Of a DNA stretch of 32,000 nt, positions 2,358 through 32,000 are shown in pieces (positions within the stretch are counted from its first letter, which is position 1; the number at the start of each line of letters is the position of its first letter). The notes under the pieces are model-generated. The model was not told the origin of the DNA. It did no database searches and worked only from the letters and a program-made list of their open reading frames with translations. The translations under genes and the position numbers were made by a program. This stretch comes from Candidatus Pelagibacter ubique HTCC1062 (lineage in GTDB: Bacteria; Pseudomonadota; Alphaproteobacteria; Pelagibacterales; Pelagibacteraceae): contig NC_007205.1 of assembly GCF_000012345.1 (NCBI RefSeq), positions 270,001-302,000 on the forward strand. The letters run 5' to 3'.

Positions 2358-3893
2358 TTATAACTTATTGTCTTCCATTTTGACACCAACAGCATAATCC
2401 TCTTGTACTGCTGATTTACCAACTCTTTTGACAATTGCTTCCCACTCTTTAGCAACTTCATCCAAAGCTTCTTGAGGAGATAGCTGACCAGCTAAAGCCT
2501 TAGAAGTTCCAGTTGCAACTGCACTAGTGAACTCAAATACACCACGAACTCTTAAAGGGAAAACTCTATTCTTACTTTTTTCCATGTCTTTAAGTGTTTT
2601 AGTGTAAGATTCCGCAATCTCTTTATCCCAACCCATTGTATCTATGTAAAGATTTGGATCAAAATCAGAGTTTTTAAATGGATTAACACCAAAGTTACCA
2701 ATAGCTAAGTCAGCTTGGTGGTTTGCTCCATTAGAAAAGAAACAAAGATAATCAAACGCCATCTCTTGAACTTTACTTTTCTTAGCAACACCTACTGCCC
2801 AACCCCATACAATGTACGGTGCTTGGTTGTATTGGTTTTCCCATTTGCCAGTAACTCTGTTCCAAACTTTGTCTGCGCCTGGAAGAGGAGCTGTACCTAC
2901 TTTATTTTTAATAGGACTATCATCTTGCATTGCTGCAATAAAAGCATCATCCCATGAAAAACTAAATAGAGTTTGTCCACCACCAAATGATCCAATTTCA
3001 TCACCTAGCCCAAAGTTAATTCCTCCTGGAGGAACATACTTAGTAGCTTCTACCCAGTCAGTTAAAGCTTCAACAAACCCTGGATTGTTAACATTTGGTT
3101 TCATAGTTTCTAAATCAAAAAAGAAACCACCTGGAGTTCTAGGATTTTTAGCATACGCTACTGATCTACTGAAAAAAGCTGCGAACATTAAGTCGTCTTT
3201 TTTCATAACTTCAGCTGAACCGTATTCTTTTTCTCCATCTCCATCCCAATCCCAACCATTAAAGTATTTGGCCATTTCGCCATATTCTTTCCAAGTTGTA
3301 GGAACTTTTAACTCTTTACCAGTGTCTGCTTTGTATTTTTTTTGCATTTCAGGATTATCTATTACGTCTTTTCTGTATTTTAGATAATGTCTGTCTCCAT
3401 CAACTGGATATTGGTACATAGTTCCATCCCAAGAAGAAACACCCACATGAGATTTTGTAACGTCTTTCATCTCTTTTGTGTTCATGTATTTTTTTGGAAC
3501 TGGTGCTAAATACTGTCTCCAGTCATTTATAAAGTTAGAAAAACCAAATACGATATCGTATGGGGCTTGACCAGCTTTAAAAGGAACCATAGCTTTTGCA
3601 TACAAATCACCTGCAGGTGTATGTGTTACATCAACTGTTGCGCCGGTTAGTTTTGCAAACTGTTCAGCATGAAGAGCTGTAGGCTGTCCGATTACTGGAA
3701 CTGCGTGCGTATTTATTTTAAGAGTTTTTCCTTTATAATTTTTCTTAGAAATTTCTTCATAAGAACAATCACCTGGAATATCTCCTGTCGCTTTGATATG
3801 TGGAAATTGATCACTCCACTTATCTGCATAAGCTGGACTAAATATCAGAATTCCTGATATCATAGCACTTAAGCAAGTTTTTATTATTTTCAT
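2358..3893 (-). CDS. ABC transporter extracellular solute-binding protein (family 1, sugar/polyol type)
   Basis: 511 aa with N-terminal signal peptide MKIIKTCLSAMISGILIFSPAYA. Trp/Gly/Asp-rich periplasmic binding-protein character. AGGAGAG Shine-Dalgarno upstream. First transporter gene in the operon. Confidence 0.85.
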   Translation of the reverse strand: MKIIKTCLSAMISGILIFSPAYADKWSDQFPHIKATGDIPGDCSYEEISKKNYKGKTLKINTHAVPVIGQPTALHAEQFAKLTGATVDVTHTPAGDLYAKAMVPFKAGQAPYDIVFGFSNFINDWRQYLAPVPKKYMNTKEMKDVTKSHVGVSSWDGTMYQYPVDGDRHYLKYRKDVIDNPEMQKKYKADTGKELKVPTTWKEYGEMAKYFNGWDWDGDGEKEYGSAEVMKKDDLMFAAFFSRSVAYAKNPRTPGGFFFDLETMKPNVNNPGFVEALTDWVEATKYVPPGGINFGLGDEIGSFGGGQTLFSFSWDDAFIAAMQDDSPIKNKVGTAPLPGADKVWNRVTGKWENQYNQAPYIVWGWAVGVAKKSKVQEMAFDYLCFFSNGANHQADLAIGNFGVNPFKNSDFDPNLYIDTMGWDKEIAESYTKTLKDMEKSKNRVFPLRVRGVFEFTSAVATGTSKALAGQLSPQEALDEVAKEWEAIVKRVGKSAVQEDYAVGVKMEDNKL

Positions 3894-5136: not shown

Positions 5137-6219
5137 ATGCCAAATTTAACATCTGTTGAAAAAGAATTCTCTAACCTCACTAAGAAAAGAGGTTTTTTAT
5201 CTTCTTTGATTGATAAAGATATAGCTGATAGCTGGAAGAGATGTATTTCAACAGGATTGGATCCGCTTAAAAAACCAAAGAGAACGATTCTTTCTTCTAA
5301 AGAGCTTGATGAGCTTAAAGAAAAAAATGAATATATTAGAAGACTGATAAACCCTGAGCTTGAACTTCTATATTCACAAATAGCTGGAACAAACTTTATG
5401 GTAGCATATTCTGACAGCACTGGCTCAGTTATGGATACTATTTACGATAAAACCTGTCTTAAAACTGATGTTGGAAAAATTGTAATACCAGGTTCAATTT
5501 GGAGAGAAGAAATTGGAGGTACTAATGGATTAGGACAGGTTGTAACTCTCAATAAAGACTCCATAGTTTCAGGTAAAGAGCATTTTTTTGAGTCACATGG
5601 AAAATTATCTTGCTTTGCAAGTCCAATACTAAATCATGAAGGTAAAACAATAGGTATAATAGATGCTTCTACTGATGTGCATTCAAGAGAGCAGCACACA
5701 CTAGCGCTAGTTAAGCTTGCTACAAAAAGCATCGAAACAAAATTATTTATAAATCAATTTAAAGATGAATTAATTTTATCTTTCCATCCACGCCAAGAAT
5801 ATCTTAGTACTAATAGTGTTGGTTTGCTTGCAATTAATGGTGATGGATTTGTTGTTGGTTCTAATTCAAACGCACGAATAATGCTACATGGACTAGCACC
5901 ATTAAAGAATGAGAATTTTAATAATATTTTTACAACTTCATTTTCTTCAATAGCAAATGAACTTTTACAAAATAAAATCCTAAAAATTTCTGATCATTTA
6001 GGTTCGTCTGTCTTTATAATAAAAAGTCAAAATTTTAAGAAAAAAATATCCAAAGAAACAGGAATAAAAACTTATGCGTGCAATAACTGTAAAGGTTCTA
6101 AGTTTAAGGAAGAAAGATGTGTTTTAATTAAATCTGCATTTATAGAAACTGGAAATATTAGTGCAGCTTCCAGAAAACTTGGTGTATCAAGAACCACAAT
6201 TTACAAACATCTAAAATAA
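5137..6219 (+). CDS. AcoR-type GAF-domain transcriptional regulator with Fis-type HTH, lacking the sigma-54 AAA+ domain
   Basis: 360 aa. N-terminus has DSWKRCISTGLDP, then GGTNGLGQ...GKEHFFESHGKLSCFASPI...GIIDAST, an AcoR-like GAF signature. C-terminus has GNISAASRKLGVSRTTIYKHLK (HTH_8). No GxxGxGKE Walker A, and the protein is too short to hold an AAA+ module. Confidence 0.75.
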   Translation: MPNLTSVEKEFSNLTKKRGFLSSLIDKDIADSWKRCISTGLDPLKKPKRTILSSKELDELKEKNEYIRRLINPELELLYSQIAGTNFMVAYSDSTGSVMDTIYDKTCLKTDVGKIVIPGSIWREEIGGTNGLGQVVTLNKDSIVSGKEHFFESHGKLSCFASPILNHEGKTIGIIDASTDVHSREQHTLALVKLATKSIETKLFINQFKDELILSFHPRQEYLSTNSVGLLAINGDGFVVGSNSNARIMLHGLAPLKNENFNNIFTTSFSSIANELLQNKILKISDHLGSSVFIIKSQNFKKKISKETGIKTYACNNCKGSKFKEERCVLIKSAFIETGNISAASRKLGVSRTTIYKHLK

Positions 6220-23328: not shown

Positions 23329-24516
23329 ATGAAATCTAAAAAGAAAATTGTACTCGCATATTCTGGCGGACTAGACACTTCTATTATTTTAAAATGGCTT
23401 CAAGAAAATTATGATGCAGAAGTTATTTGTTATACTGCAGATGTTGGGCAAGAAATTGATAGAAAAAAAATTATAAAAAATGCCAAAAGACTAGGTGTTA
23501 AAAATATCATTATTGAAGATTTAAAAGATACATTTGTAAAAGACTATGTCTTTCCAATGATTAGAGGGCATGCAATTTATGAAGGTGTTTATTTATTGGG
23601 TACTTCAATTGCAAGACCTTTAATTGCAAAACGTCAAATTGCTGCCGCTAAAAAATTTGGAGCTTATGCAGTTTCTCATGGTTCAACTGGCAAAGGAAAT
23701 GATCAAGTGAGATTTGAATTAGGATATCATTACTTTGGTCCAAAAGTAAAAATTATTGCACCATGGAGAATATGGAAATTAAACTCTAGAACAGATTTAA
23801 TTAAATATGCAAAAAAAAACAATATTCCAATTCCAACAGATAAAAAAGGTGCTCCTCCTTTCTCTATTGATGATAATTTATACCACACATCAACTGAGGG
23901 TAAGGTTTTAGAAAACCCAAAAAATTCAGCTCCTGAGTTTCTTTTTCAAAGAACAGTATCTCCTGAAAAAGCACCTAACAAAGCTTCATTTGTAACTATA
24001 GGATTTAAAAATGGAGACCCCATAACTGTTAATGGTAAAAAACTATCGCCTGGAAATTTGTTAGAAAAACTTAATAATGTTGCCGGCAAAAATGGAATAG
24101 GTAGAGTTGATTTAGTTGAAAACAGATTTATTGGGATTAAATCTAGAGGTGTTTATGAAACGCCTGGTGGAACACTTTTAATGTCAGCGCACAGAGCAAT
24201 TGAGTCTATTACTTTGGACAAAGAAACTATGCATAAAAAAGATGAAATTATGCCTAAATATGCTGAACTTATTTACAATGGTTACTGGTACTCAAAAGCA
24301 AGATTTAAACTTCAAAAAATTGTCGATCTTAAAAAGAATAAAGTTAATGGCTCTGTTAAGCTTAAATTATACAAAGGCAATATCACTATAATGTCTAGAC
24401 AGACAAAAAGTAATGCTTACTCAATGAAAAAAGTTTCTTTTGAAGAAAATAAAACCTTTAATAAATCAAATGTAGAAAGATTTATTAACTTTCATAAACA
24501 AAAGCTTCGTTCATAA
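23329..24516 (+). CDS. argG: Argininosuccinate synthase
   Basis: 395 aa with ATP-pyrophosphatase motif AYSGGLDTS, HGSTGKGNDQVRFE and GRVDLVENRFIGIKSRGVYETPGG. Confidence 0.95.
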   Translation: MKSKKKIVLAYSGGLDTSIILKWLQENYDAEVICYTADVGQEIDRKKIIKNAKRLGVKNIIIEDLKDTFVKDYVFPMIRGHAIYEGVYLLGTSIARPLIAKRQIAAAKKFGAYAVSHGSTGKGNDQVRFELGYHYFGPKVKIIAPWRIWKLNSRTDLIKYAKKNNIPIPTDKKGAPPFSIDDNLYHTSTEGKVLENPKNSAPEFLFQRTVSPEKAPNKASFVTIGFKNGDPITVNGKKLSPGNLLEKLNNVAGKNGIGRVDLVENRFIGIKSRGVYETPGGTLLMSAHRAIESITLDKETMHKKDEIMPKYAELIYNGYWYSKARFKLQKIVDLKKNKVNGSVKLKLYKGNITIMSRQTKSNAYSMKKVSFEENKTFNKSNVERFINFHKQKLRS

Positions 24517-24520
24517 ATTA

Positions 24521-25138
24521 ATGAAAATAAAAGTATTTGCTGACACAATTTGTGGGTGGTGTTTTATTGGTCAGACAAGATTAAATAAAGCATTAAAAAA
24601 TTTTCCTGAGACTAAGTTTGAGATAGAGCATGTTCCATTTCAACTAAATACTGACATGCCTAAAGAAGGAATTGAAAGAAACAAGTACTTAGAAATAAAG
24701 TTTGGTGGGAAAGAGTTTGCTCAACCAATGTATGATCGAATGACAGAAGAGGCGAATAAAGAAAATCTTAATTTTAATCTAGATAAGATAAAGAAAACAC
24801 CCAATACAGTATTTTCTCACTTATTAATAAAATTAGCCGAACAATCTAATGTACACAACGAAATTAAAGAAAAAATATATCAATCATACTTTATTGAAGG
24901 TCTTGATATTGGAGATAAAGAAATCTTAATTAATATTGGTAAAGAATTTAATATTAATGGAGATACAATCAATGATTTTTTTAATTTAAAAAATATTGAA
25001 GAAATTAATTCATATATTTTAGTCGCAAGAGAGAAAGAAATTAATGGAGTACCCTTCTTTGAAATAGGAACAGATTTTATTTCAGGCGCCCAAAGCTCTG
25101 CAAATTTAGAAAGTGTAATAAAGTCCAATTTAAGCTAA
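24521..25138 (+). CDS. DsbA-family oxidoreductase (FrnE / 2-hydroxychromene-2-carboxylate isomerase-like)
   Basis: 205 aa with N-terminal FADTICGWCFIGQ (CxxC thioredoxin-like motif) and C-terminal INGVPFF. Confidence 0.7.
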   Translation: MKIKVFADTICGWCFIGQTRLNKALKNFPETKFEIEHVPFQLNTDMPKEGIERNKYLEIKFGGKEFAQPMYDRMTEEANKENLNFNLDKIKKTPNTVFSHLLIKLAEQSNVHNEIKEKIYQSYFIEGLDIGDKEILINIGKEFNINGDTINDFFNLKNIEEINSYILVAREKEINGVPFFEIGTDFISGAQSSANLESVIKSNLS

Positions 25139-25194
25139 AAATTAAAGGACACTTTATCCTTTGCCTTTAACATATAAATATCTATTCTAGCTAT

Positions 25195-25653
25195 ATGGAA
25201 GCTCTAAAAAATTGGATGAAAGATGCTGCTAACATTTTATTTGATGATAGCAAAAATGATCTGAGGTCTTTACCAAGATCTGTTAGATTACAAATTTTAT
25301 TAGTTCTGAGTTTCGTTTGGACAACTGTTTTTAGTTTATACATATTTTCTTATACAACTTTTGCATTTGGTTGGGCCGGTTTATACGTTGCTCATATTGG
25401 ATTGATATTTGCAGTTTACATGACATTCAAACATTTTCATAAAGCAGAGGCGCAATCTAGCAGTGTATTCAAAACTAAAAACTTTGATCCATTTAAGATT
25501 ATGGTTATTGTTTTTGTAATTGTATTCATCTTTGTATTTTCTAAGGGAATAGAAATTTTAACAAGTCCAAACCCTAGCTCTTATTCAATTCCATATGATG
25601 GACCAGTAAAATCTGTGTTTGAAAAGTGGCTACCATTTAGTAAGGATAAGTAA
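25195..25653 (+). CDS. Hypothetical membrane protein (about 3 TM)
   Basis: 152-aa ORF with three hydrophobic segments. I recognise no family. Its stop overlaps the next gene's start (TAATG), which argues for real translation. Confidence 0.5.
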   Translation: MEALKNWMKDAANILFDDSKNDLRSLPRSVRLQILLVLSFVWTTVFSLYIFSYTTFAFGWAGLYVAHIGLIFAVYMTFKHFHKAEAQSSSVFKTKNFDPFKIMVIVFVIVFIFVFSKGIEILTSPNPSSYSIPYDGPVKSVFEKWLPFSKDK

Positions 25654-26033
25654 TGGATAAAATAGCAAAAATTTTACAGCTTGCACTAATGTGCATTATT
25701 TTAGTGAGCACTGTAATTGCTGTTGGTATGGAAATTAATAATATGTTTCTAAATCAATCTGTAATGCTAGCAGATTTACTTTTAATGTTTCTTTATTTAG
25801 AAGTCTTAGCAATGGTTCGTGTTTTTTGGAATCAACAATCAATCAGTATAACTTTACCTCTTTTAATTGCCATCACTGCTCTCGCACGATTTATTATATT
25901 ACAAGGAAAAGAAATGGATCCATCAGCATTAGTCTATGAAGCTATAGCTATAGTTCTAATTGCATCTGCAATAGTTATTTTAAGATTAAGACACAGTGAT
26001 AAATTGGGTCTAAAGAAAAGAAAATCTAAATAG
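25653..26033 (+). CDS. PsiE-like (phosphate-starvation-inducible E family) membrane protein
   Basis: 126 aa with 4 TM helices. FLYLEVLAMVRVFW...LLIAITALARFIIL aligns by eye with E. coli PsiE YFLYFEFIALIVKYF...YIGITAIVRLIIV. Confidence 0.5.
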   Translation: MDKIAKILQLALMCIILVSTVIAVGMEINNMFLNQSVMLADLLLMFLYLEVLAMVRVFWNQQSISITLPLLIAITALARFIILQGKEMDPSALVYEAIAIVLIASAIVILRLRHSDKLGLKKRKSK

Positions 26034-26039
26034 TTTAAA

Positions 26040-27182
26040 ATGATTTTTGAAGCTTCAAGGGCTAAAGCCGTTGATAAATTAAATACTTTTGTTGAACAAA
26101 ATCTTTCAGATTATTCAAAACTAAGAAATTTTGATTTTGGGCCTAGTAATAGATCTAATGTTTCTTGTTTATCCCCCTATATAACTCACGGAATAATTAA
26201 TGAATTAGAAGTAATTAATAAATCTCTTAAAAAGTTTTCATTTGCAAATAATGAAAAATTTATTCAGGAAGTTCTTTGGCATGTTTATTGGAAAGGTTGG
26301 CTAGAACTAAGACCTGATGTTTGGTCAGATTACTTAATAGAATTAGATAAAATTAAAAAAGAATTTAAAAACAATCAAAGTTATTTGGATGCAACAGAAG
26401 GAAAAACAAATGTAGATTGTTTTAATCAATGGGTAAGTGAACTTAAAGAAAACAATTATCTTCATAACCACACAAGAATGTGGTTTGCTAGCATTTGGAT
26501 TTTTACACTAGAATTACCATGGCAGTTGGGAGCTGAGTTTTTTATGCAACATCTATATGATGGGGATGCTGCATCAAATACCCTTGGTTGGAGATGGGTT
26601 GCTGGCATTCAAACTCAAGGCAAGCATTACCTTGCAAGTGAATGGAATATAAATAAATTTACAAATAATAGATTTAAAAACATAAAACTTAATGAAAATG
26701 CCAAACCTATATCCAATGATAAGATATATTCTGTTATTAGCAAAGGCTTTAAAAATTCTGAGATTTTGGAAGATAAAACTTTATTAATATTTGAAAATAA
26801 TATGACATTTGAATTTTCTGATTTTAAAGAACATAAGTTTAAAAAAATTTTGTTAGTCTCAAATAAAACAGATAGAACTATCAAATTAAGTGAAAAGGTG
26901 TTGAAATTTAAAGCAAATCTTTTAGAGGATCAAAAAATAAGATTGAAAGAAAAATCAATAAATTGTGAAACTATTAACACTAATGATTTAAAAAATATTA
27001 CCGAAGAAGTTTATGCGCTTTATCCAACCGTTGGTGAAAATTTAAATTTTATTCAAAATAATCAATTAAAAAATATAAGATTTTTATATAGAAAGTTGGA
27101 TCAGTTTTCTTGGCAATATTGTAATAAAGGTTTTTTTAATTTTAAAAACTATATTCCAAAAATTATTGCTAATTTTAATTAA
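26040..27182 (+). CDS. Cryptochrome/photolyase-superfamily protein with inverted domain order (NewPHL-like)
   Basis: 380 aa. The FAD-binding photolyase-domain motifs sit at the N-terminus: SCLSPYITHGII, LWHVYWKGW, NHTRMWFASIW, YDGDAASNTLGWRWVAG. About 170 further residues of beta/alpha character follow. Only 6 nt separate the start from the upstream gene, so no N-terminal alpha/beta domain can be hidden. Confidence 0.7.
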   Translation: MIFEASRAKAVDKLNTFVEQNLSDYSKLRNFDFGPSNRSNVSCLSPYITHGIINELEVINKSLKKFSFANNEKFIQEVLWHVYWKGWLELRPDVWSDYLIELDKIKKEFKNNQSYLDATEGKTNVDCFNQWVSELKENNYLHNHTRMWFASIWIFTLELPWQLGAEFFMQHLYDGDAASNTLGWRWVAGIQTQGKHYLASEWNINKFTNNRFKNIKLNENAKPISNDKIYSVISKGFKNSEILEDKTLLIFENNMTFEFSDFKEHKFKKILLVSNKTDRTIKLSEKVLKFKANLLEDQKIRLKEKSINCETINTNDLKNITEEVYALYPTVGENLNFIQNNQLKNIRFLYRKLDQFSWQYCNKGFFNFKNYIPKIIANFN

Positions 27183-27400
27183 AACCAACGTATCATTCCA
27201 ATTATACCTGCTGTTGCATAAAAAAATTGCAACACAAGTATTCCCTTGTGACCTCCTCTATATGCCCAGATACCAATTAAAATGGCAGACAACAGCAACA
27301 AACAAAATCCTAAAAACTCTATTCCAATGTTTAAGGCTACAAACATAGAATAAAGGATTGCCGTAATAACCCCTGCCCATTCAAAAAATTTATTATTCAT
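27179..27400 (-). CDS. Small 3-TM membrane protein resembling a single PnuC-type repeat
   Basis: 73 aa. The pattern EWAGVITAILYSMFVALN...LLSAILIGIWAY...LVLQFFYATAGIIGMIRW resembles the PnuC pattern E-W-x...L-N ... Y ... L-Q-x-F-Y...I-x-G...W. It has a 4-nt ATGA overlap with the upstream GATase gene. Confidence 0.45.
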   Translation of the reverse strand: MNNKFFEWAGVITAILYSMFVALNIGIEFLGFCLLLLSAILIGIWAYRGGHKGILVLQFFYATAGIIGMIRWF

Positions 27401-28116
27401 AATAGCCTTTTAAAATTCTCATAAAGTATCTTAGAATAATTATTCATATCAGGCATATTATTTTTTGCAGCTTGATCAAATTTATCTAAAGCTCCCTCAC
27501 CTAATTGACTTTCAAGAGCTTTTTTATATTCAGGCACACACCCCCACTCATTAACTGTTGTGTCTTTAATTTCTATATGAAATTGAATTGCATATGCGTG
27601 ATTTTGGTATTTGAAAATTTGATATTTAGTAATAGGAGATGATGCTAGTAAAGTTACATCCTTATTATTATCTATTCCTTGCACTTCATATGAATGCCAC
27701 TGCAAACTTTTAATTTGATCTGGAAATTTTGAAAATAAAATATCCTCCTTTTTTTCTTTAGTAAAATTTATATCCATTATTCCAATTTCTGCTGGATTTG
27801 ATTTAACTACCTTACCACCTATTACCTCACCTAATAACTGACACCCAAGACAAAAACCTAAATAAGGTTTTTTTAAATTAACAACAAATTCTTTAATTGC
27901 TTTTTTTTCTTCAATTAGCCATGGATATTCTTGTTCCATAAAAGTATCCATTGGACCACCCATACAAAACATTCCATCAAATTTTCTTAGATCACTTGGG
28001 ATTTTTTCACCTTCATCTAGCTCTATAGTGGTTAAGTTAAAACCATCAGCTAACATTAAATCTTTGATATAGCCTGGGTCTTCAATCTTTATATGCTGTA
28101 AGACAATTATGTTCAT
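27397..28116 (-). CDS. Stand-alone class I glutamine amidotransferase (GuaA-N-like)
   Basis: 239 aa with nucleophile elbow YLGFCLGCQLL and His-x-Glu in AIQFHIEI. Confidence 0.8.
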   Translation of the reverse strand: MNIIVLQHIKIEDPGYIKDLMLADGFNLTTIELDEGEKIPSDLRKFDGMFCMGGPMDTFMEQEYPWLIEEKKAIKEFVVNLKKPYLGFCLGCQLLGEVIGGKVVKSNPAEIGIMDINFTKEKKEDILFSKFPDQIKSLQWHSYEVQGIDNNKDVTLLASSPITKYQIFKYQNHAYAIQFHIEIKDTTVNEWGCVPEYKKALESQLGEGALDKFDQAAKNNMPDMNNYSKILYENFKRLL

Positions 28117-28159
28117 TACTATATTTATAGCATTTTAAAATAGTCTACTGAACAATACT

Positions 28160-28768
28160 TTAAGCTAAAAAGGTTTTTATTCCGTCTAAAATATACTGAA
28201 CACTTAATCCAACTAGAATAATTGCTATTACTCTTGAAATTACACTAATAACTTTTTTATTTATTATCTGAGAAAATTTTGAAGCAGTAAAAAAAAATAT
28301 AAAAGTTAAAAGCAAAACTGAAGCTAAAGCAATCATTCCAACAGATTGGTTTGTAAAATTACTTCCCATATCTGAAACAGAAACAATAACAGATGTGATT
28401 GCAGCTGGTCCTGCTATAATGGGTGTTGCTAAAGGAAATACACTTACATTTTCAGAATTAAAATCAATGTCATCTTCTTTTCGTTGTTGTCTTTTATCAA
28501 ACAACATTTCCATGGAAATTATTAATAAAATGATGCCTCCACCAATTGTAAATGCTGGAAAAGATATATTCAAATAATTTAATAAAGTGCTTCCAAGAAA
28601 TGCAAAGAATAGCAATATGATTGATGCAATTATTGTTGCACTCAATGCAGTTTTAACTCTTTGTTGGCTGCTCATATTTTGAGTTACTGCTAAGAATAAT
28701 GGTGTATTTCCTAGTGGATCAATTACAATAAAATATAAAAAGAAAGTTTGAATAAATATTTCAAGCAT
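28160..28768 (-). CDS. MarC family (UPF0056) integral membrane protein
   Basis: 202 aa with 6 TM helices. The N-terminal IVIDPLGNTPLFLA is typical of the MarC family. Confidence 0.8.
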   Translation of the reverse strand: MLEIFIQTFFLYFIVIDPLGNTPLFLAVTQNMSSQQRVKTALSATIIASIILLFFAFLGSTLLNYLNISFPAFTIGGGIILLIISMEMLFDKRQQRKEDDIDFNSENVSVFPLATPIIAGPAAITSVIVSVSDMGSNFTNQSVGMIALASVLLLTFIFFFTASKFSQIINKKVISVISRVIAIILVGLSVQYILDGIKTFLA

Positions 28769-28809
28769 TCACTTTTCTAGCATAGTTACCTGGATAAATT
28801 CAGCAAATA

Positions 28810-29223
28810 TTAAAACAAATAATAAATTAAGACGTACCTACTTACTTTTCCAATTGCCACTAAAATAATAAAATCTAAAAATCTAACTCTTAATAAACCT
28901 GCAACTAAAGTCAGTGGATCACCTATTATTGGAACCCAAGCAAATAATAATGACCATTTACCAAATTTATTAAACCATTTTGAAGAGCTTTCTATTTGTT
29001 TGTCTTTAAACGGAAACCACTTTTTTGTACTAAGATTTCTTGAATAAAATCCCAAGACCCAGTTAACAACTGATCCCAAAATATTCCCAAAACTAGCAAC
29101 AATTAACAATAATAAACTATCAAAATTTGATGTTGCAATTAATCCTGCCAATGTGAGCTCAGATGAAAATGGTAAAATGGTTGCTGCTAAAAAAGATATA
29201 GCAAATAAAGATAAGTAAATCAC
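28810..29223 (-). CDS. yqaA: YqaA-like (DedA/SNARE-associated superfamily) membrane protein
   Basis: 137 aa that aligns by eye along the full length of E. coli YqaA ([13 protein letters not shown]..., [23 protein letters not shown]). Its GTG start at 29223 overlaps the stop of the upstream small ORF (GTGA). Confidence 0.75.
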
Positions 29224-29342
29224 TTAGAGCACTTTTTGGAGCAATACTTTACCTTATCCCAATTAAGCTTCCACTTCTTACGCCAAACAAAAGGTCTTTT
29301 ACAAACAGGACAAACTTTTGAAGGTAAATTTTCTTTTTTCAT
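29220..29342 (-). CDS. 40-aa zinc-ribbon protein, DUF2256-like (absent from the ORF track)
   Basis: The minus-strand ATG at 29342 gives [40 protein letters not shown], ending in a TGA at 29222-29220. It has a four-Cys CxxC...CxxxC pattern. The start overlaps the photolyase-related stop (TAATG) and the stop overlaps the yqaA start, so it fills the gap exactly. Confidence 0.7.
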
Positions 29343-30832
29343 TAAATAGTATTTTGTTTAATAAATTTATCAGCTTCAGATAAAATCATTTTCTTTCTTT
29401 CATCTTTCATTTTATCAAAAACATAAACCATCATAGACAATCTAGGGTTCTTTAAAAAAAATTTTCTATTTTTATTTATAAACCTCCAATAAAGACCATC
29501 CATCGTATTACACCATTCCCCTTTTTTAAAATCCATCATTTTCATAAAATAACTTGATCCACAAATGTATGGTTTCGTTGCAAAAATACCTCCATCACTA
29601 AATAAGCCCATTCCATAAACATTAGGGACCATCACCCAATCAGAAGAATCTACAAACATTTCCATAAACCACTTATAAACAATTGTTGGTTTCACTTCAC
29701 AAAGGTTCATTATATTTGATAAAATCATTAACCTTTCTATATGATGAGACCAGCCATGATTAACGGCATTTTTAATTGCATGATCCAGTGGAGGCAAACC
29801 TGTTGTGCCTTCATACCAAGACTTTTTCATTTTTCTTTCATGGTTGAAAAAATTTTTTGTTTCCATTTCATCAGAGTAACCTTGATAAATTCCACGCATG
29901 AACTCTCTCCAGCCTATTATTTGACGAATATAACCTTCAAGTGAGTTCATTCTAATTTTGTGTTTTTTATGAAATTCTAAAATTTTTTGAATGATAATTT
30001 CAGGGGTTATCAATCCTAAATTAATATACGGGCTTAATGCGCTATGAAATAAAATATTGTCTTTTTGATTAACAGCATCTTCATAATCACCAAATAAATT
30101 TGATTTTTCTTTAATAAAAAAATCTAAAAGTTTGACCACATCATTGTATTCTGTTGCTAACCAAAAATCATTAGTGCTACCAGGATGATCTTTAAATAGT
30201 TTTTCAATAATTGGTTTTAATTTTTTAGTATGATTAGTTTCGTTAATTTTTGGAAATTTTGGTATTGATATGTCTTTTGGTAATTTATTTCTGTTATCTT
30301 CATCAAAACTCCATTTGCCTCCAATAGGGTTTCCATCTGCTCCCATTAATATTCCAGATTTTTTACGAACTTCTTTGTAAAATGTTGCCATAAAAGGTTT
30401 TTTTGATTTTACTAAATAATTTTTAAACTCATCTCTTGAGTTTAAAAACATTGGAGTTTGAACAATATTCCAGTTAATTTTTTCTTTTTTTAAGAATTGT
30501 GAAATTTTCTTTTCAAAAGATTTATCCTCAACCTCAAAACTTGAAATTTCAGTAATTTTTTTTTGATTAATGATAATTTTTAATTTTTTAAAATAAGTAT
30601 CTTTAAAACCTTTGTCCTCAATTTTAGAATATTCAAGTTTGTATTTATTTGCTCTAAGCATATCTGCATAAGACCTCATAGAAGAGAGAAATAGCAGTAT
30701 CTTTTGCTTATGATGCTTTTCATAAGTACATAGTTCATAGTCTTCTGCCATGTAAAAAGAGTGGTCCTTTTTGAAGCGGTCTACGTATTTTAATGGAAAT
30801 AATTGATTGCCAAGTATAAAAAACAATTTCAT
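29342..30832 (-). CDS. Cryptochrome/photolyase-related protein, COG3046 / FeS-BCP (bacterial 6-4 photolyase, CryB/PhrB) family
   Basis: 496 aa. The N-terminus FILGNQLF...[19 protein letters not shown] is typical of COG3046. The C-terminal half has [34 protein letters not shown] and [10 protein letters not shown]. Confidence 0.85.
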
Positions 30833-30859
30833 AGTTAAATATAACTAAATAAAAATTAT

Positions 30860-31570
30860 ATGTCAGAAAAATATCTTATTTTTGGTGCGACAGGTTCTGT
30901 GGGTTCCAGCTTAGCTGAACAATTGAAAAATTCAGGAAATGATATTCATCTAATAGCAAGAAATGAAAATGAAGTTAAAACTATTGCAGAAAAATTAGGC
31001 TGCACTTATACGGTTGCTGACGTTTTAGAAGAAGGATTTATAGAAAAAGTAAAATCAGACATTAGTGAAATTAAGGGTATCGCTTACTGTGTGGGATCTA
31101 TTGATTTAAAACCATTAAGGATGGTTACAGAAGCAGATATGAATAAATGTATGAAACTAAACCTTTATTCAGCTATTGAAGCAATAAAAGGATTTCAAGA
31201 AAGTTTAAAAAAGAACAAAGGCTCAGTTGTTTTATTTTCAACTGTTGCTGCTCAAAGAGGTTTTACTAATCACACAATTATTGCTTCTGCTAAAGCTGCA
31301 GTTGAGGGACTAACTGTTACACTAGCTGCTGAGTTTGCTCCACATATTAGAGTGAATTGTATTGCACCCAGTTTATCAAAATCTAAAATTGCAGAACCAA
31401 TGTTAAAAAATCCTGCAATTGCAGAAGGAATTGCTAAAGCACATCCTCTTAAAAGATTGGGTGAAGGAAAAGATTCTGCAGCGCTTGCAAAATTTTTAAT
31501 TACTGAAGAGAGTTCTTGGATTACTGGACAGATAATAGCTGTTGATGGTGGTAGATCAAAACTTTCTTAA
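30860..31570 (+). CDS. Short-chain dehydrogenase/reductase family protein (atypical active site)
   Basis: 236 aa with cofactor motif GATGSVGS, NLYSA and FSTVAA. Where YxxxK is expected, the sequence reads IIASAK. Confidence 0.8.
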   Translation: MSEKYLIFGATGSVGSSLAEQLKNSGNDIHLIARNENEVKTIAEKLGCTYTVADVLEEGFIEKVKSDISEIKGIAYCVGSIDLKPLRMVTEADMNKCMKLNLYSAIEAIKGFQESLKKNKGSVVLFSTVAAQRGFTNHTIIASAKAAVEGLTVTLAAEFAPHIRVNCIAPSLSKSKIAEPMLKNPAIAEGIAKAHPLKRLGEGKDSAALAKFLITEESSWITGQIIAVDGGRSKLS

Positions 31571-31571
31571 A

Positions 31572-32000
31572 GTGAAAAAATATTTTTTATTAATAATTTT
31601 TTTTCTTTTATTTGCTTCAAAAAGCTATTCCAATAATTATACATTCACTAAAATTATAGAGTTAGATGAACCTTGGGGATCATCCTTTATTAACAATGAT
31701 GAAATCATTATTACTGAAAAAAGTGGAAAAATTAAAATTGTTAATATTATTTCAAAAGAAGTTACAGAGATTAAACATAATCTTAATTTTTTAGAAGTCG
31801 GCCAAGGTGGGTTATTAGATATTATTCATCAAGATAATACTCTGTGGATTTCTTATTCAGAAGATAGGGGAAATTTAAAAACAAGCACATCAATTGCAAA
31901 AGCACAATTAAACAAACAAGAATTAAATTTTAAAAATATTTTTCAAGCAAACCCTCCTATAGATTCTGGTTATCATTTTGGTTCAAGATTAGCGATTAAA
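31572..32000 (+). CDS. PQQ-dependent soluble sugar dehydrogenase (YliI/sorbosone dehydrogenase family), partial
   Basis: The GTG at 31572 follows the SDR stop by 1 nt. It has a signal-like N-terminus KKYFLLIIFFLLFASKSYS, then EPWGSSFI, EVGQGGLLDI and GYHFGSRLA, which are typical of the beta-propeller family. The ORF runs off the window end. Confidence 0.7.
   Translation, partial: MKKYFLLIIFFLLFASKSYSNNYTFTKIIELDEPWGSSFINNDEIIITEKSGKIKIVNIISKEVTEIKHNLNFLEVGQGGLLDIIHQDNTLWISYSEDRGNLKTSTSIAKAQLNKQELNFKNIFQANPPIDSGYHFGSRLAIK

Follow-up and report, generated by a model that had tools for sequence, protein, structure and literature searches.

Photolyase homologues and their variable neighbors at a probable photorepair locus of Candidatus Pelagibacter ubique HTCC1062

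The genes of the locus

We have focused our analysis on positions 25195-31570 of a window of 32,000 nucleotides from the genome of Candidatus Pelagibacter ubique HTCC1062 (Pelagibacterales, SAR11; NC_007205.1, positions 270,001 to 302,000). In this interval two non-canonical members of the photolyase superfamily are found together with a DUF2256 peptide, a short-chain dehydrogenase/reductase (SDR) and six small membrane and enzyme genes. The labels given in Table 1 were assigned by Pfam and NCBIfam searches of the translated open reading frames (ORFs). A first-pass annotation made from the nucleotide sequence had proposed these ten genes, and their coordinates and family labels were all confirmed by the ORF list and by the two profile collections.

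Table 1. Genes and candidate promoter of the interval, in window coordinates (aa, amino acids; TM, transmembrane helices).
Feature	Position	Strand	Profile matches and other properties
3-TM protein, 152 aa	25195-25653	+	three hydrophobic helices; no Pfam or NCBIfam match
PsiE-family membrane protein	25653-26033	+	Pfam PsiE E = 5e-16, 59.4 bits, above cut-off
NewPHL/SPL-type protein, 380 aa	26040-27182	+	Pfam FAD_binding_7 only, E = 1e-15; no N-terminal photolyase domain
73-aa protein (p73), half-PnuC-like, three-helix membrane protein	27179-27400	-	PF04973 E = 0.039
GATase1, stand-alone class I glutamine amidotransferase-like	27397-28116	-	Pfam GATase E = 1.3e-19, 71.1 bits, above cut-off
MarC/NAAT-family membrane protein	28160-28768	-	Pfam MarC E = 3.8e-51, 173.9 bits, above cut-off; TIGR00427 also above cut-off
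YqaA-like small DedA/VTT-domain membrane protein	28810-29223	-	Pfam VTT E = 2.4e-14, 54.3 bits, above cut-off
DUF2256 (PF10013), 40 aa	29220-29342	-	Pfam E = 2.7e-19, 69.4 bits against a cut-off of 25
DPRP-type photolyase	29342-30832	-	PF04244 (DPRP) E = 8e-65 and PF03441 E = 4e-9
Candidate photolyase-unit promoter	30833-30866	-	-35 CTGACA inside the SDR start; -10 TATATT, its end 6 nt upstream of the photolyase ATG
SDR, atypical	30860-31570	+	Pfam adh_short_C2 E = 3.5e-43

The genes form two convergent units that had been proposed to meet at 27179-27182, and the stop codons of the two do overlap there. Along the block, from 25195 to 31570, the junctions measure -1, 6, -4, -4, 43, 41, -4, -1, and 27 nt. 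The tight spacing noted earlier (-4 to 43 nt) is thus correct as a measurement but not as a sign of linkage, being the norm in this genome. Spacers outside the block have a median of 4 nt, 18 of the 25 junctions there are of 43 nt or less, and the coding share of the whole window is ca. 97%. Since the block is no tighter than its genomic background, packing is uninformative about shared function.

Two photolyase homologues

The DPRP protein aligns along its full length with PhrB (PDB 4DJA/5KCM; E = 1e-82, residues 3-492), and its N-terminal DPRP and C-terminal flavin adenine dinucleotide (FAD)-binding domains fit the prokaryotic (6-4) photolyase clade (COG3046/PF04244). In PhrB a His-His pair is catalytic and two Asp are needed for Mg2+-stimulated repair (bioRxiv 10.1101/366252). 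The pair (H365/H366) is found here as His363/His364 and the Mg2+ site (D179/D254) as D177 and D252, all of them kept in the alignment and in five other taxa. The ligands of the [4Fe-4S] cluster (C350, C438, C441, and C454 of PhrB) are missing: Pro stands at C350 and Asn at C454, and the CxxC loop has been lost through a deletion of 10 aa. This loss is common to all of the 80 nearest genomic relatives, a set spread over SAR11, SAR86, Porticoccaceae, Actinomarina, Bdellovibrionota, Planctomycetota, and further groups. Besides, E403 of PhrB, the Glu near N5 of FAD, is a Met within a WVMVPNV motif. The absence of Fe-S cysteines and the Met in place of Glu403 are the sequence traits of the cluster-less "subgroup M" (PMC9178010), to which the Prochlorococcus enzyme PromaPL belongs (PMC9178010; bioRxiv 10.1101/366252). 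PromaPL is the sole cluster-less relative that has been assayed, and it repairs (6-4) lesions, weakly in vitro (bioRxiv 10.1101/366252).

Judged by these residues, the DPRP protein belongs to the cluster-less subgroup M of (6-4) photolyase homologues, and the label "FeS-BCP-like" given to it in the first-pass annotation was right about the clade and wrong about the cofactor. With PhrB, CryB and PromaPL it shares full-length homology, both domains, the His-His pair and the Asp179/Asp254 Mg2+ site. It differs from PhrB in not being an Fe-S protein, and has the same subgroup-M traits as PromaPL. The SAR11 gene also differs from these in having a DUF2256 peptide coupled to it, a pairing not discussed in the literature that we searched.

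The second homologue has no PF00875 match and no N-terminal alpha/beta antenna domain; its catalytic FAD domain is N-terminal and starts at residue 1. Residues 8-197 align with 205-395 of the E. coli photolyase. The set of residues that binds cyclobutane pyrimidine dimers (CPDs) in the latter (E274, W277, N341, M345, and W384) is found as E77, W80, N143, M147, and W186, and the FAD-binding R344, D372, and N378 as R146, D174, and N180, all invariant in 46 sequences. The equivalent of G381 (G183) is Gly in 33 of these sequences and Ser in 13. Two of the three Trp of the triad, Trp359 and Trp382, are present as the likewise invariant W161 and W184, and a Phe is found at the position of W306. The C-terminal Z-domain (ca. 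150 aa) contains W358 and the GFF hallmark (G364-F/Y365-F366), again invariant in the 46 sequences. The Z-domain Trp, the GFF and the residue set are the features described for the NewPHL/SPL family (PMC7736829; PMC8476157).

By every sequence criterion the 380-aa protein is a NewPHL/SPL, and hence a predicted CPD photolyase. The inverted topology, the CPD and FAD residues and the Z-domain are those of NewPHL (Emmerich et al., 2020) and SPL (Xu et al., 2021), and like the alphaproteobacterial SPL subgroup A it has no Fe-S cysteines. Within this family, only the enzymes of D. shibae and M. mesophilicum have been shown to confine CPD repair to single-stranded DNA. A contextual parallel is the SPL of Roseivirga, encoded in an operon with other photolyase genes, DUF2256 and DPRP (33% identity, E = 2e-29). 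Unlike the genes of the NewPHL/SPL operons, the SAR11 gene is convergent to the (6-4) photolyase and not co-operonic with it. No class I CPD photolyase was found within the window.

Conservation of DUF2256 beside photolyases

We scanned the neighborhoods of the photolyase gene using one genome per GTDB species, which gave 50 loci from Pelagibacterales and 30 from other lineages, and recorded the presence of each gene within 10 kb (identifiers beginning with L are those of loci and metagenomic contigs). Within the Pelagibacterales loci DUF2256 was present in 46 and the SDR and NewPHL in 44 each. The other genes were less frequent: argG 31, PsiE 19, 3-TM 16, p73 13, GATase 12, DsbA 4, MarC 2, and YqaA 1.

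DUF2256 is a four-Cys zinc ribbon that has been placed in the TRASH clan (PMC4047054). Its CxxC...WRKKW...YCSxxC signature scores above the gathering threshold, and none of its four Cys (C11, C14, C34, and C38) varies over 64 sequences. The start of the gene overlaps the photolyase stop by 1 nt, and the peptide is predicted to be translationally coupled to the (6-4) photolyase. In the 46 Pelagibacterales loci it lies downstream of the photolyase, abutting it in about half of them and one gene apart in most others. This second variable slot, between photolyase and DUF2256, holds a gene of ca. 110-123 aa in 22 of the 46 loci and is empty in the window strain; in the examples examined the gene encodes a DCC1-like thiol-disulfide oxidoreductase (PF04134) or an uncharacterised 109-aa protein (L024:11484-11855; L034:11475-11834; L001:11491-11820; L082:5710-6084). 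Psychrobacter, too, has a DCC1-like gene directly after DPRP, and the association of the two may thus be a recurrent one.

Outside SAR11, DUF2256 adjoins the photolyase in five loci of the same scan, Mucisphaera, SAR86 and Puniceispirillales among them, and is located within a few kb in two more. We also searched with the DUF2256 profile and inspected 11 diverse bacterial genomic contexts. Photolyase genes were found within two genes of DUF2256 in six of them. DPRP and other photolyase genes (PHR) occur near it in Roseivirga (SPL-PHR-flavin reductase (Flavin_Reduct)-DUF2256-DPRP), Polaribacter (DUF2256-PHR-DPRP-PHR and, farther down the cluster, the same atypical SDR), Alteromonas (three PHR genes followed by DPRP-DUF2256), Psychrobacter (DPRP-DCC1-HAD-DUF2256-PHR), and Henriciella (PHR-DUF2256). 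A Rhodothermaeota metagenome-assembled genome (MAG) has PHR-DUF2256 with class I-type photolyase only. DUF2256 accompanies cluster-less and Fe-S-containing enzymes alike, as well as ordinary PF00875 photolyases. We had considered that it might substitute for the lost Fe-S cluster, and rejected the idea in view of its presence beside Fe-S enzymes in Alteromonas and Henriciella.

We found no statement about the function of DUF2256 in the literature searched. An AlphaFold 2 model (pLDDT 81.7) gave no significant match in a fold search, the best being YacG (E = 0.17) and, also, an FCS zinc finger. DUF2256 resembles YacG (DUF329) and the FCS zinc fingers in being a CxxC...CxxC zinc ribbon of ca. 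40 aa from the TRASH clan, and these are its best, though non-significant, fold matches. YacG differs in being an inhibitor of gyrase, and its likeness to DUF2256 is one of fold and clan. DUF2256 is probably a photolyase accessory, and by analogy with YacG, a related zinc ribbon that binds gyrase, we infer that it would bind the enzyme or DNA. In Lacimicrobium (L170:3263-6162) it is found directly after topA (topoisomerase I), with no photolyase nearby. This neighbor, together with the weak fold likeness to YacG, hints that some DUF2256 peptides may act on DNA-topology enzymes. In a GC-rich Pseudomonadota MAG (L056:15601-15705 and downstream) the DUF2256 motif continues in frame for ca. 100 aa (…ICPSEAARR…VARGQLEIVQGG…), which suggests a putative fusion to another domain.

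SAR11 genomes have few classical regulators, and a basic zinc ribbon so tightly coupled to a DPRP protein could be its DNA-binding output partner, the main role of the DPRP protein being not repair but light sensing or regulation of the cryptochrome type, in the manner of Rhodobacter CryB. CryB belongs to the same family and has reported regulatory roles (PMC9178010), and the repair activity of the cluster-less PromaPL in vitro is very low. We nevertheless regard this as improbable: the His-His pair and the two Asp of the Mg2+ site, critical for repair, are strictly conserved, PromaPL does repair (6-4) lesions, DUF2256 is also found next to ordinary PF00875 photolyases, and neither target genes nor an operator is evident.

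An atypical SDR

The SDR is divergent from the photolyase, from which it is separated by a spacer of 27 nt. Its active site had been described as non-canonical in the first-pass annotation, and this was confirmed and extended to the orthologues. The catalytic Tyr of YxxxK is Ile or Val (Ile in the window protein), with Ser and Lys kept, YCVGS is found in place of NNAG, and there is a conserved NHxI(I/V)xSxK motif with a His seven residues before the Lys. The Ser-Tyr-Lys triad and NNAG of classical SDRs are thus absent. Both the loss of the Tyr and YCVGS are kept in all SAR11 orthologues and in those of L079/L080 and Polaribacter. Among the 44 Pelagibacterales loci where the SDR is near the photolyase are the rearranged L021, L031, and L033. 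The same Tyr-less subfamily is found directly upstream of the photolyase in a non-SAR11 alphaproteobacterium (L079/L080), and again in the photolyase cluster of Polaribacter (L081:13490-14141). That all SDRs linked to these genes are of one subfamily was considered and rejected, as those of Psychrobacter, Rhodothermaeota and Armatimonadetes keep the catalytic Tyr. When the non-SAR11 members were added to the SDR alignment, a search with its profile gave no new contexts, its best 120 matches being all from Pelagibacter.

SAR11 genomes are very syntenic overall, which makes conservation within the order weak evidence, and argG, next door, is conserved in 31 of the 50 loci. Most of the subgroup-M photolyase genes outside SAR11 are solitary. 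All the neighborhoods described, photolyases, DUF2256 and SDR included, could on these grounds be chance juxtapositions in a compact genome. We find this very hard to sustain, since the same combinations turn up independently among Bacteroidota, Gammaproteobacteria and other Alphaproteobacteria, with differing orders and orientations, and the SDR stays near the photolyase after rearrangement. In addition, SPL-FeS-BCP operons (e.g., in Cyclobacterium marinum) and a species co-occurrence of 85% have been published (PMC8476157). The SAR11 locus resembles those operons, and the Roseivirga and Polaribacter clusters, in the co-location of DPRP, SPL and DUF2256, and shares with Polaribacter the Tyr-less SDR as well. 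The Bacteroidota clusters differ in adding class I-type photolyases, flavin reductase, DUF2805, and GTP cyclohydrolase I. In SAR11 the set is pared down, and flexible genes interrupt it.

Flavin reductase (PF01613) and DUF2805 were seen repeatedly in the Bacteroidota clusters (L081:1-14141; L171:2546-7622), which have a larger accessory set than SAR11, and the one from Polaribacter additionally contains GTP cyclohydrolase I and an NmrA/DUF2867 protein.

Variation in the small membrane and enzyme genes

A very different pattern was found for the remaining genes of the block. The gap between DUF2256 and NewPHL, where p73, GATase1, MarC, and YqaA are located in HTCC1062, is below 60 nt (the two genes abutting) in 17 of 44 loci and at least 400 nt in 24. 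Elsewhere the same slot holds genes for FG-GAP/ASPIC, fasciclin and DUF4174 proteins, a Cys-rich secreted protein, a GDSL-lipase/acyltransferase, a glycosyltransferase, or a methyltransferase. PsiE sits in a slot between NewPHL and argG, and so does DsbA, just outside the interval. The 3-TM gene is always accompanied by PsiE in the 50 species loci, and in 16 of them the protein is found at 77-91% identity.

A metagenome scan anchored on MarC (contigs L088-L167) gave 52 contigs with enough flanking sequence, 45 of them linked to the locus. Over these 45 the pool formed by YqaA, MarC, GATase, p73, PsiE, 3-TM, and DsbA appears in more than 35 orders with the anchors fixed, and the position of NewPHL relative to PsiE-3TM-DsbA also shifts. 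The position of MarC varies widely even among close relatives. Some contigs carry these genes and no photolyase genes at all (L102:874-2659, L120:7119-9767, L130:3213-5934, L150:2059-3612). On contigs of this type photolyase, DUF2256 and NewPHL are missing, and SDR, YqaA, MarC, and argG remain; MarC is present on L120, L130, and L150, YqaA is kept in L102, and L130 and L150 preserve a remnant of DUF2256. Another contig (L104:1-5640) is without NewPHL. These photolyase-less contigs suggest a natural presence/absence polymorphism of photorepair within the populations.

Outside SAR11, tblastn detected no gene of this pool adjoining a photolyase gene. Among 96 ORFs flanking the photolyase in 25 non-SAR11 loci, Pfam recognized 118 families, none of the recurrent ones being MarC, VTT, PsiE, GATase, or SDR.

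The p73 protein deserves a separate comment. Its score against PF04973 (14.4 bits, cut-off 27.3) makes the earlier label "PnuC-repeat-like" weak for the window protein alone, but the label is consistent across the family, 18 of 40 members matching the PF04973 N-terminus at positions ca. 4-66, the first three-helix repeat (best E = 1.2e-5). The 204 representatives found among 1.84 billion proteins are all of 32-139 aa, and no full-length PnuC is among them. A single-sequence AlphaFold model consisted of two long helices, did not form a three-helix bundle, and was set aside. The label seems reasonable to us for a likeness at the level of sequence. Yet p73, which matches the first three-helix repeat and scores below the Pfam cut-off, has neither the seven-helix (3+1+3) architecture nor the score of a PnuC and is not one, and its sole tie to photolyases is its position in a subset of SAR11. 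In size and number of helices it is to PnuC what SemiSWEET is to SWEET, and by this analogy the family may be a half-transporter. We found no description of a stand-alone half-PnuC-like family in the papers searched. GATase1 has the GFCLGCQ nucleophile elbow and the FHIE motif, with all NCBIfam matches below their cut-offs.

Transcription and light regulation

The candidate promoter of the photolyase unit (Table 1) is the best consensus match in the region (10/12), and a AGTTATAT(T)TA element ca. 6 nt before the photolyase ATG is kept in the 12 SAR11 loci that we aligned. With such an arrangement the photolyase mRNA would be leaderless or nearly so, and the divergent promoters would overlap within the 27-nt spacer. 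Promoter-like sites were not enriched in the scan (37 found, 44.6 expected), and no terminator was detected at the convergent junction. The minus-strand genes beyond DUF2256 are probably co-transcribed with the photolyase in the window strain.

The first-pass annotation had spoken of a "response" module, and in the regulatory sense this finds no support here, as no homologue of LitR/CarH, LOV or other known light-regulator families was found among the window ORFs. Literature searches on light, UV or diel expression of SAR11 photolyase genes gave no data on the locus. The nearest regulated analogs are the Pseudomonas clusters controlled by LitR/PplR (phrB, cryB, SDR, FAD oxidoreductase, ufaM, folE/folM), which are also centered on photolyases and contain an SDR and genes of unknown function; the Psychrobacter locus is of this type. 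The SAR11 window differs in having no LitR/MerR or LOV homologue and in its accessory genes, and the SDRs of the Pseudomonas-type clusters keep the catalytic Tyr, unlike that of SAR11.

A photorepair core and its passengers

What we have observed directly, that is, the gene content, the conservation of residues and the synteny statistics, makes it likely, in our opinion, that the interval is composed of a conserved photorepair core and of passenger genes that vary from strain to strain. Going by characterised homologues, the cluster-less (6-4) photolyase would reverse (6-4) photoproducts by means of reduced FAD and blue or UV-A light, and the convergent NewPHL/SPL would reverse CPDs, preferentially in single-stranded DNA. 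DUF2256 would act as a small accessory coupled to the first enzyme, and the Tyr-less SDR would complete the core as its conserved divergent neighbor. A flexible islet would split this core in two or three places, with YqaA, MarC, GATase1, and p73 as passengers between DUF2256 and NewPHL, and PsiE, 3-TM, and DsbA between NewPHL and argG. We infer that genes of this small pool are gained, lost and rearranged from strain to strain through homologous recombination in the conserved flanks. The passengers would be transcribed with the photolyase by sitting in its operon and have no functional part in photorepair, their co-transcription being due to insertion into the operon and not to shared function.

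Flexible genomic islands and hypervariable regions are well known in SAR11 and other streamlined marine bacteria. The locus is similar to them in its conserved flanks, its strain-specific unrelated cargo and its many natural arrangements. It differs in that the islet is very small (0-4.5 kb), in the closed pool of about seven genes in HTCC1062-like populations, and in the lack of repeats, tRNA or integrase. A repeat search over 24400-31700 gave AT-rich chance matches only, none of them at gene junctions.

The alternative put forward by the first-pass annotation was that all nine or ten genes form one light- or UV-damage response module, with a photoprotective role, such as cofactor import or membrane repair, for the membrane proteins and the GATase. 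The six same-strand genes, with overlaps or spacers of at most 43 nt and no terminator, are probably co-transcribed, YqaA usually overlaps the end of DUF2256, the great majority of the MarC contigs are linked to the locus in HTCC1062-like populations, and precursors of flavin or nicotinamide are conceivable substrates for import by a PnuC-like unit. Against this, the passengers are at the locus in only 1-19 of the 50 Pelagibacterales species, 17 of 44 loci have nothing in their slot and others have unrelated genes there, their order is scrambled among close relatives, and they are absent from the photolyase neighborhoods of every other lineage examined. MarC and YqaA are kept where the photolyases have been deleted (L102, L120, L130, and L150), and the tight packing is the genome norm. 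Conservation of gene order beyond close relatives, whose absence the annotation had set beforehand as the observation that would speak against the module, was not found for the membrane genes. Synteny has by now largely refuted a module of this extent, to which we assign little probability. A narrower one, made of the photolyases, DUF2256 and the SDR, does agree with the data (44-46 of the 50 species loci and recurrence across phyla), and it is the membrane components, in more than 35 orders and retained without photolyases, that find no support as parts of it.

Several observations weigh against our division into core and passengers. In HTCC1062-like populations MarC is faithful to the locus, 45 of the 52 MarC contigs carrying other genes of it, and YqaA, frequent in HTCC1062-like metagenomic contigs, is nearly always directly behind DUF2256 where present. 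Such fidelity could reflect inheritance together with flank-mediated exchange, or a lineage-specific functional tie in these populations. No repeats or mobile-element genes were found at the junctions, so that the mechanism of the shuffling is a presumed one. As to the core, there is no photolyase beside DUF2256 in five of the 11 contexts inspected (Rubrobacter, Sphingomonas, Chloracidobacterium, an Armatimonadetes MAG, and Lacimicrobium), the SDR is kept on the photolyase-less contigs L120, L130, and L150, and most SDRs near DUF2256 elsewhere are canonical. The only cluster-less relative tested, PromaPL, is weakly active in vitro.

A bolder proposal, which we find possible but rather doubtful, is that DUF2256 is a dedicated and hitherto unrecognised zinc-ribbon accessory subunit of both (6-4) and CPD photolyases and the Tyr-less SDR a second accessory (acting, e.g., on a chromophore or a damaged base), and separately that p73 is a stand-alone half-PnuC transporter. 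If this were true, the SAR11 locus would be a minimal natural version of a four-part photorepair system.

Implications and other genes of the window

The enzyme classes, the cluster-less subgroup and the SPL-BCP linkage are already published, and the SAR11 locus adds a minimal member to the known photolyase gene clusters. The new leads are modest: the cross-phylum association of DUF2256 with photolyases, the Tyr-less SDR subfamily, the half-PnuC-like family, and the shuffled and sometimes photolyase-less alleles. SAR11 is the most abundant heterotroph in the sunlit surface ocean, and UV repair by a minimal, iron-sparing gene set is of ecological relevance; at least at the photorepair locus, SAR11 would rely on a cluster-less (6-4) photolyase and a NewPHL/SPL. 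DUF2256 is among the commonest uncharacterised proteins of up to 50 aa, and its link to photolyases, like that of the SDR, has cross-phylum neighborhood support. The locus also illustrates that in streamlined genomes tight packing, and even co-transcription, are no proof of shared function. The presence/absence polymorphism of photorepair could track light exposure.

Beyond the two photolyase homologues of the block, neither another photolyase nor a tRNA nor an Rfam match was found in the window. Its remaining genes encode ABC permeases, glycolate-oxidase-like proteins, ccm cytochrome c maturation proteins, ArgG (argG), and a DsbA-like protein. An ORF of 511 aa (window 2358-3893, minus strand) adjoins two ABC permease genes and has no Pfam match at E <= 1e-5, and the sole match of a 360-aa protein (5137-6219, plus strand) is a marginal one to a GAF domain.

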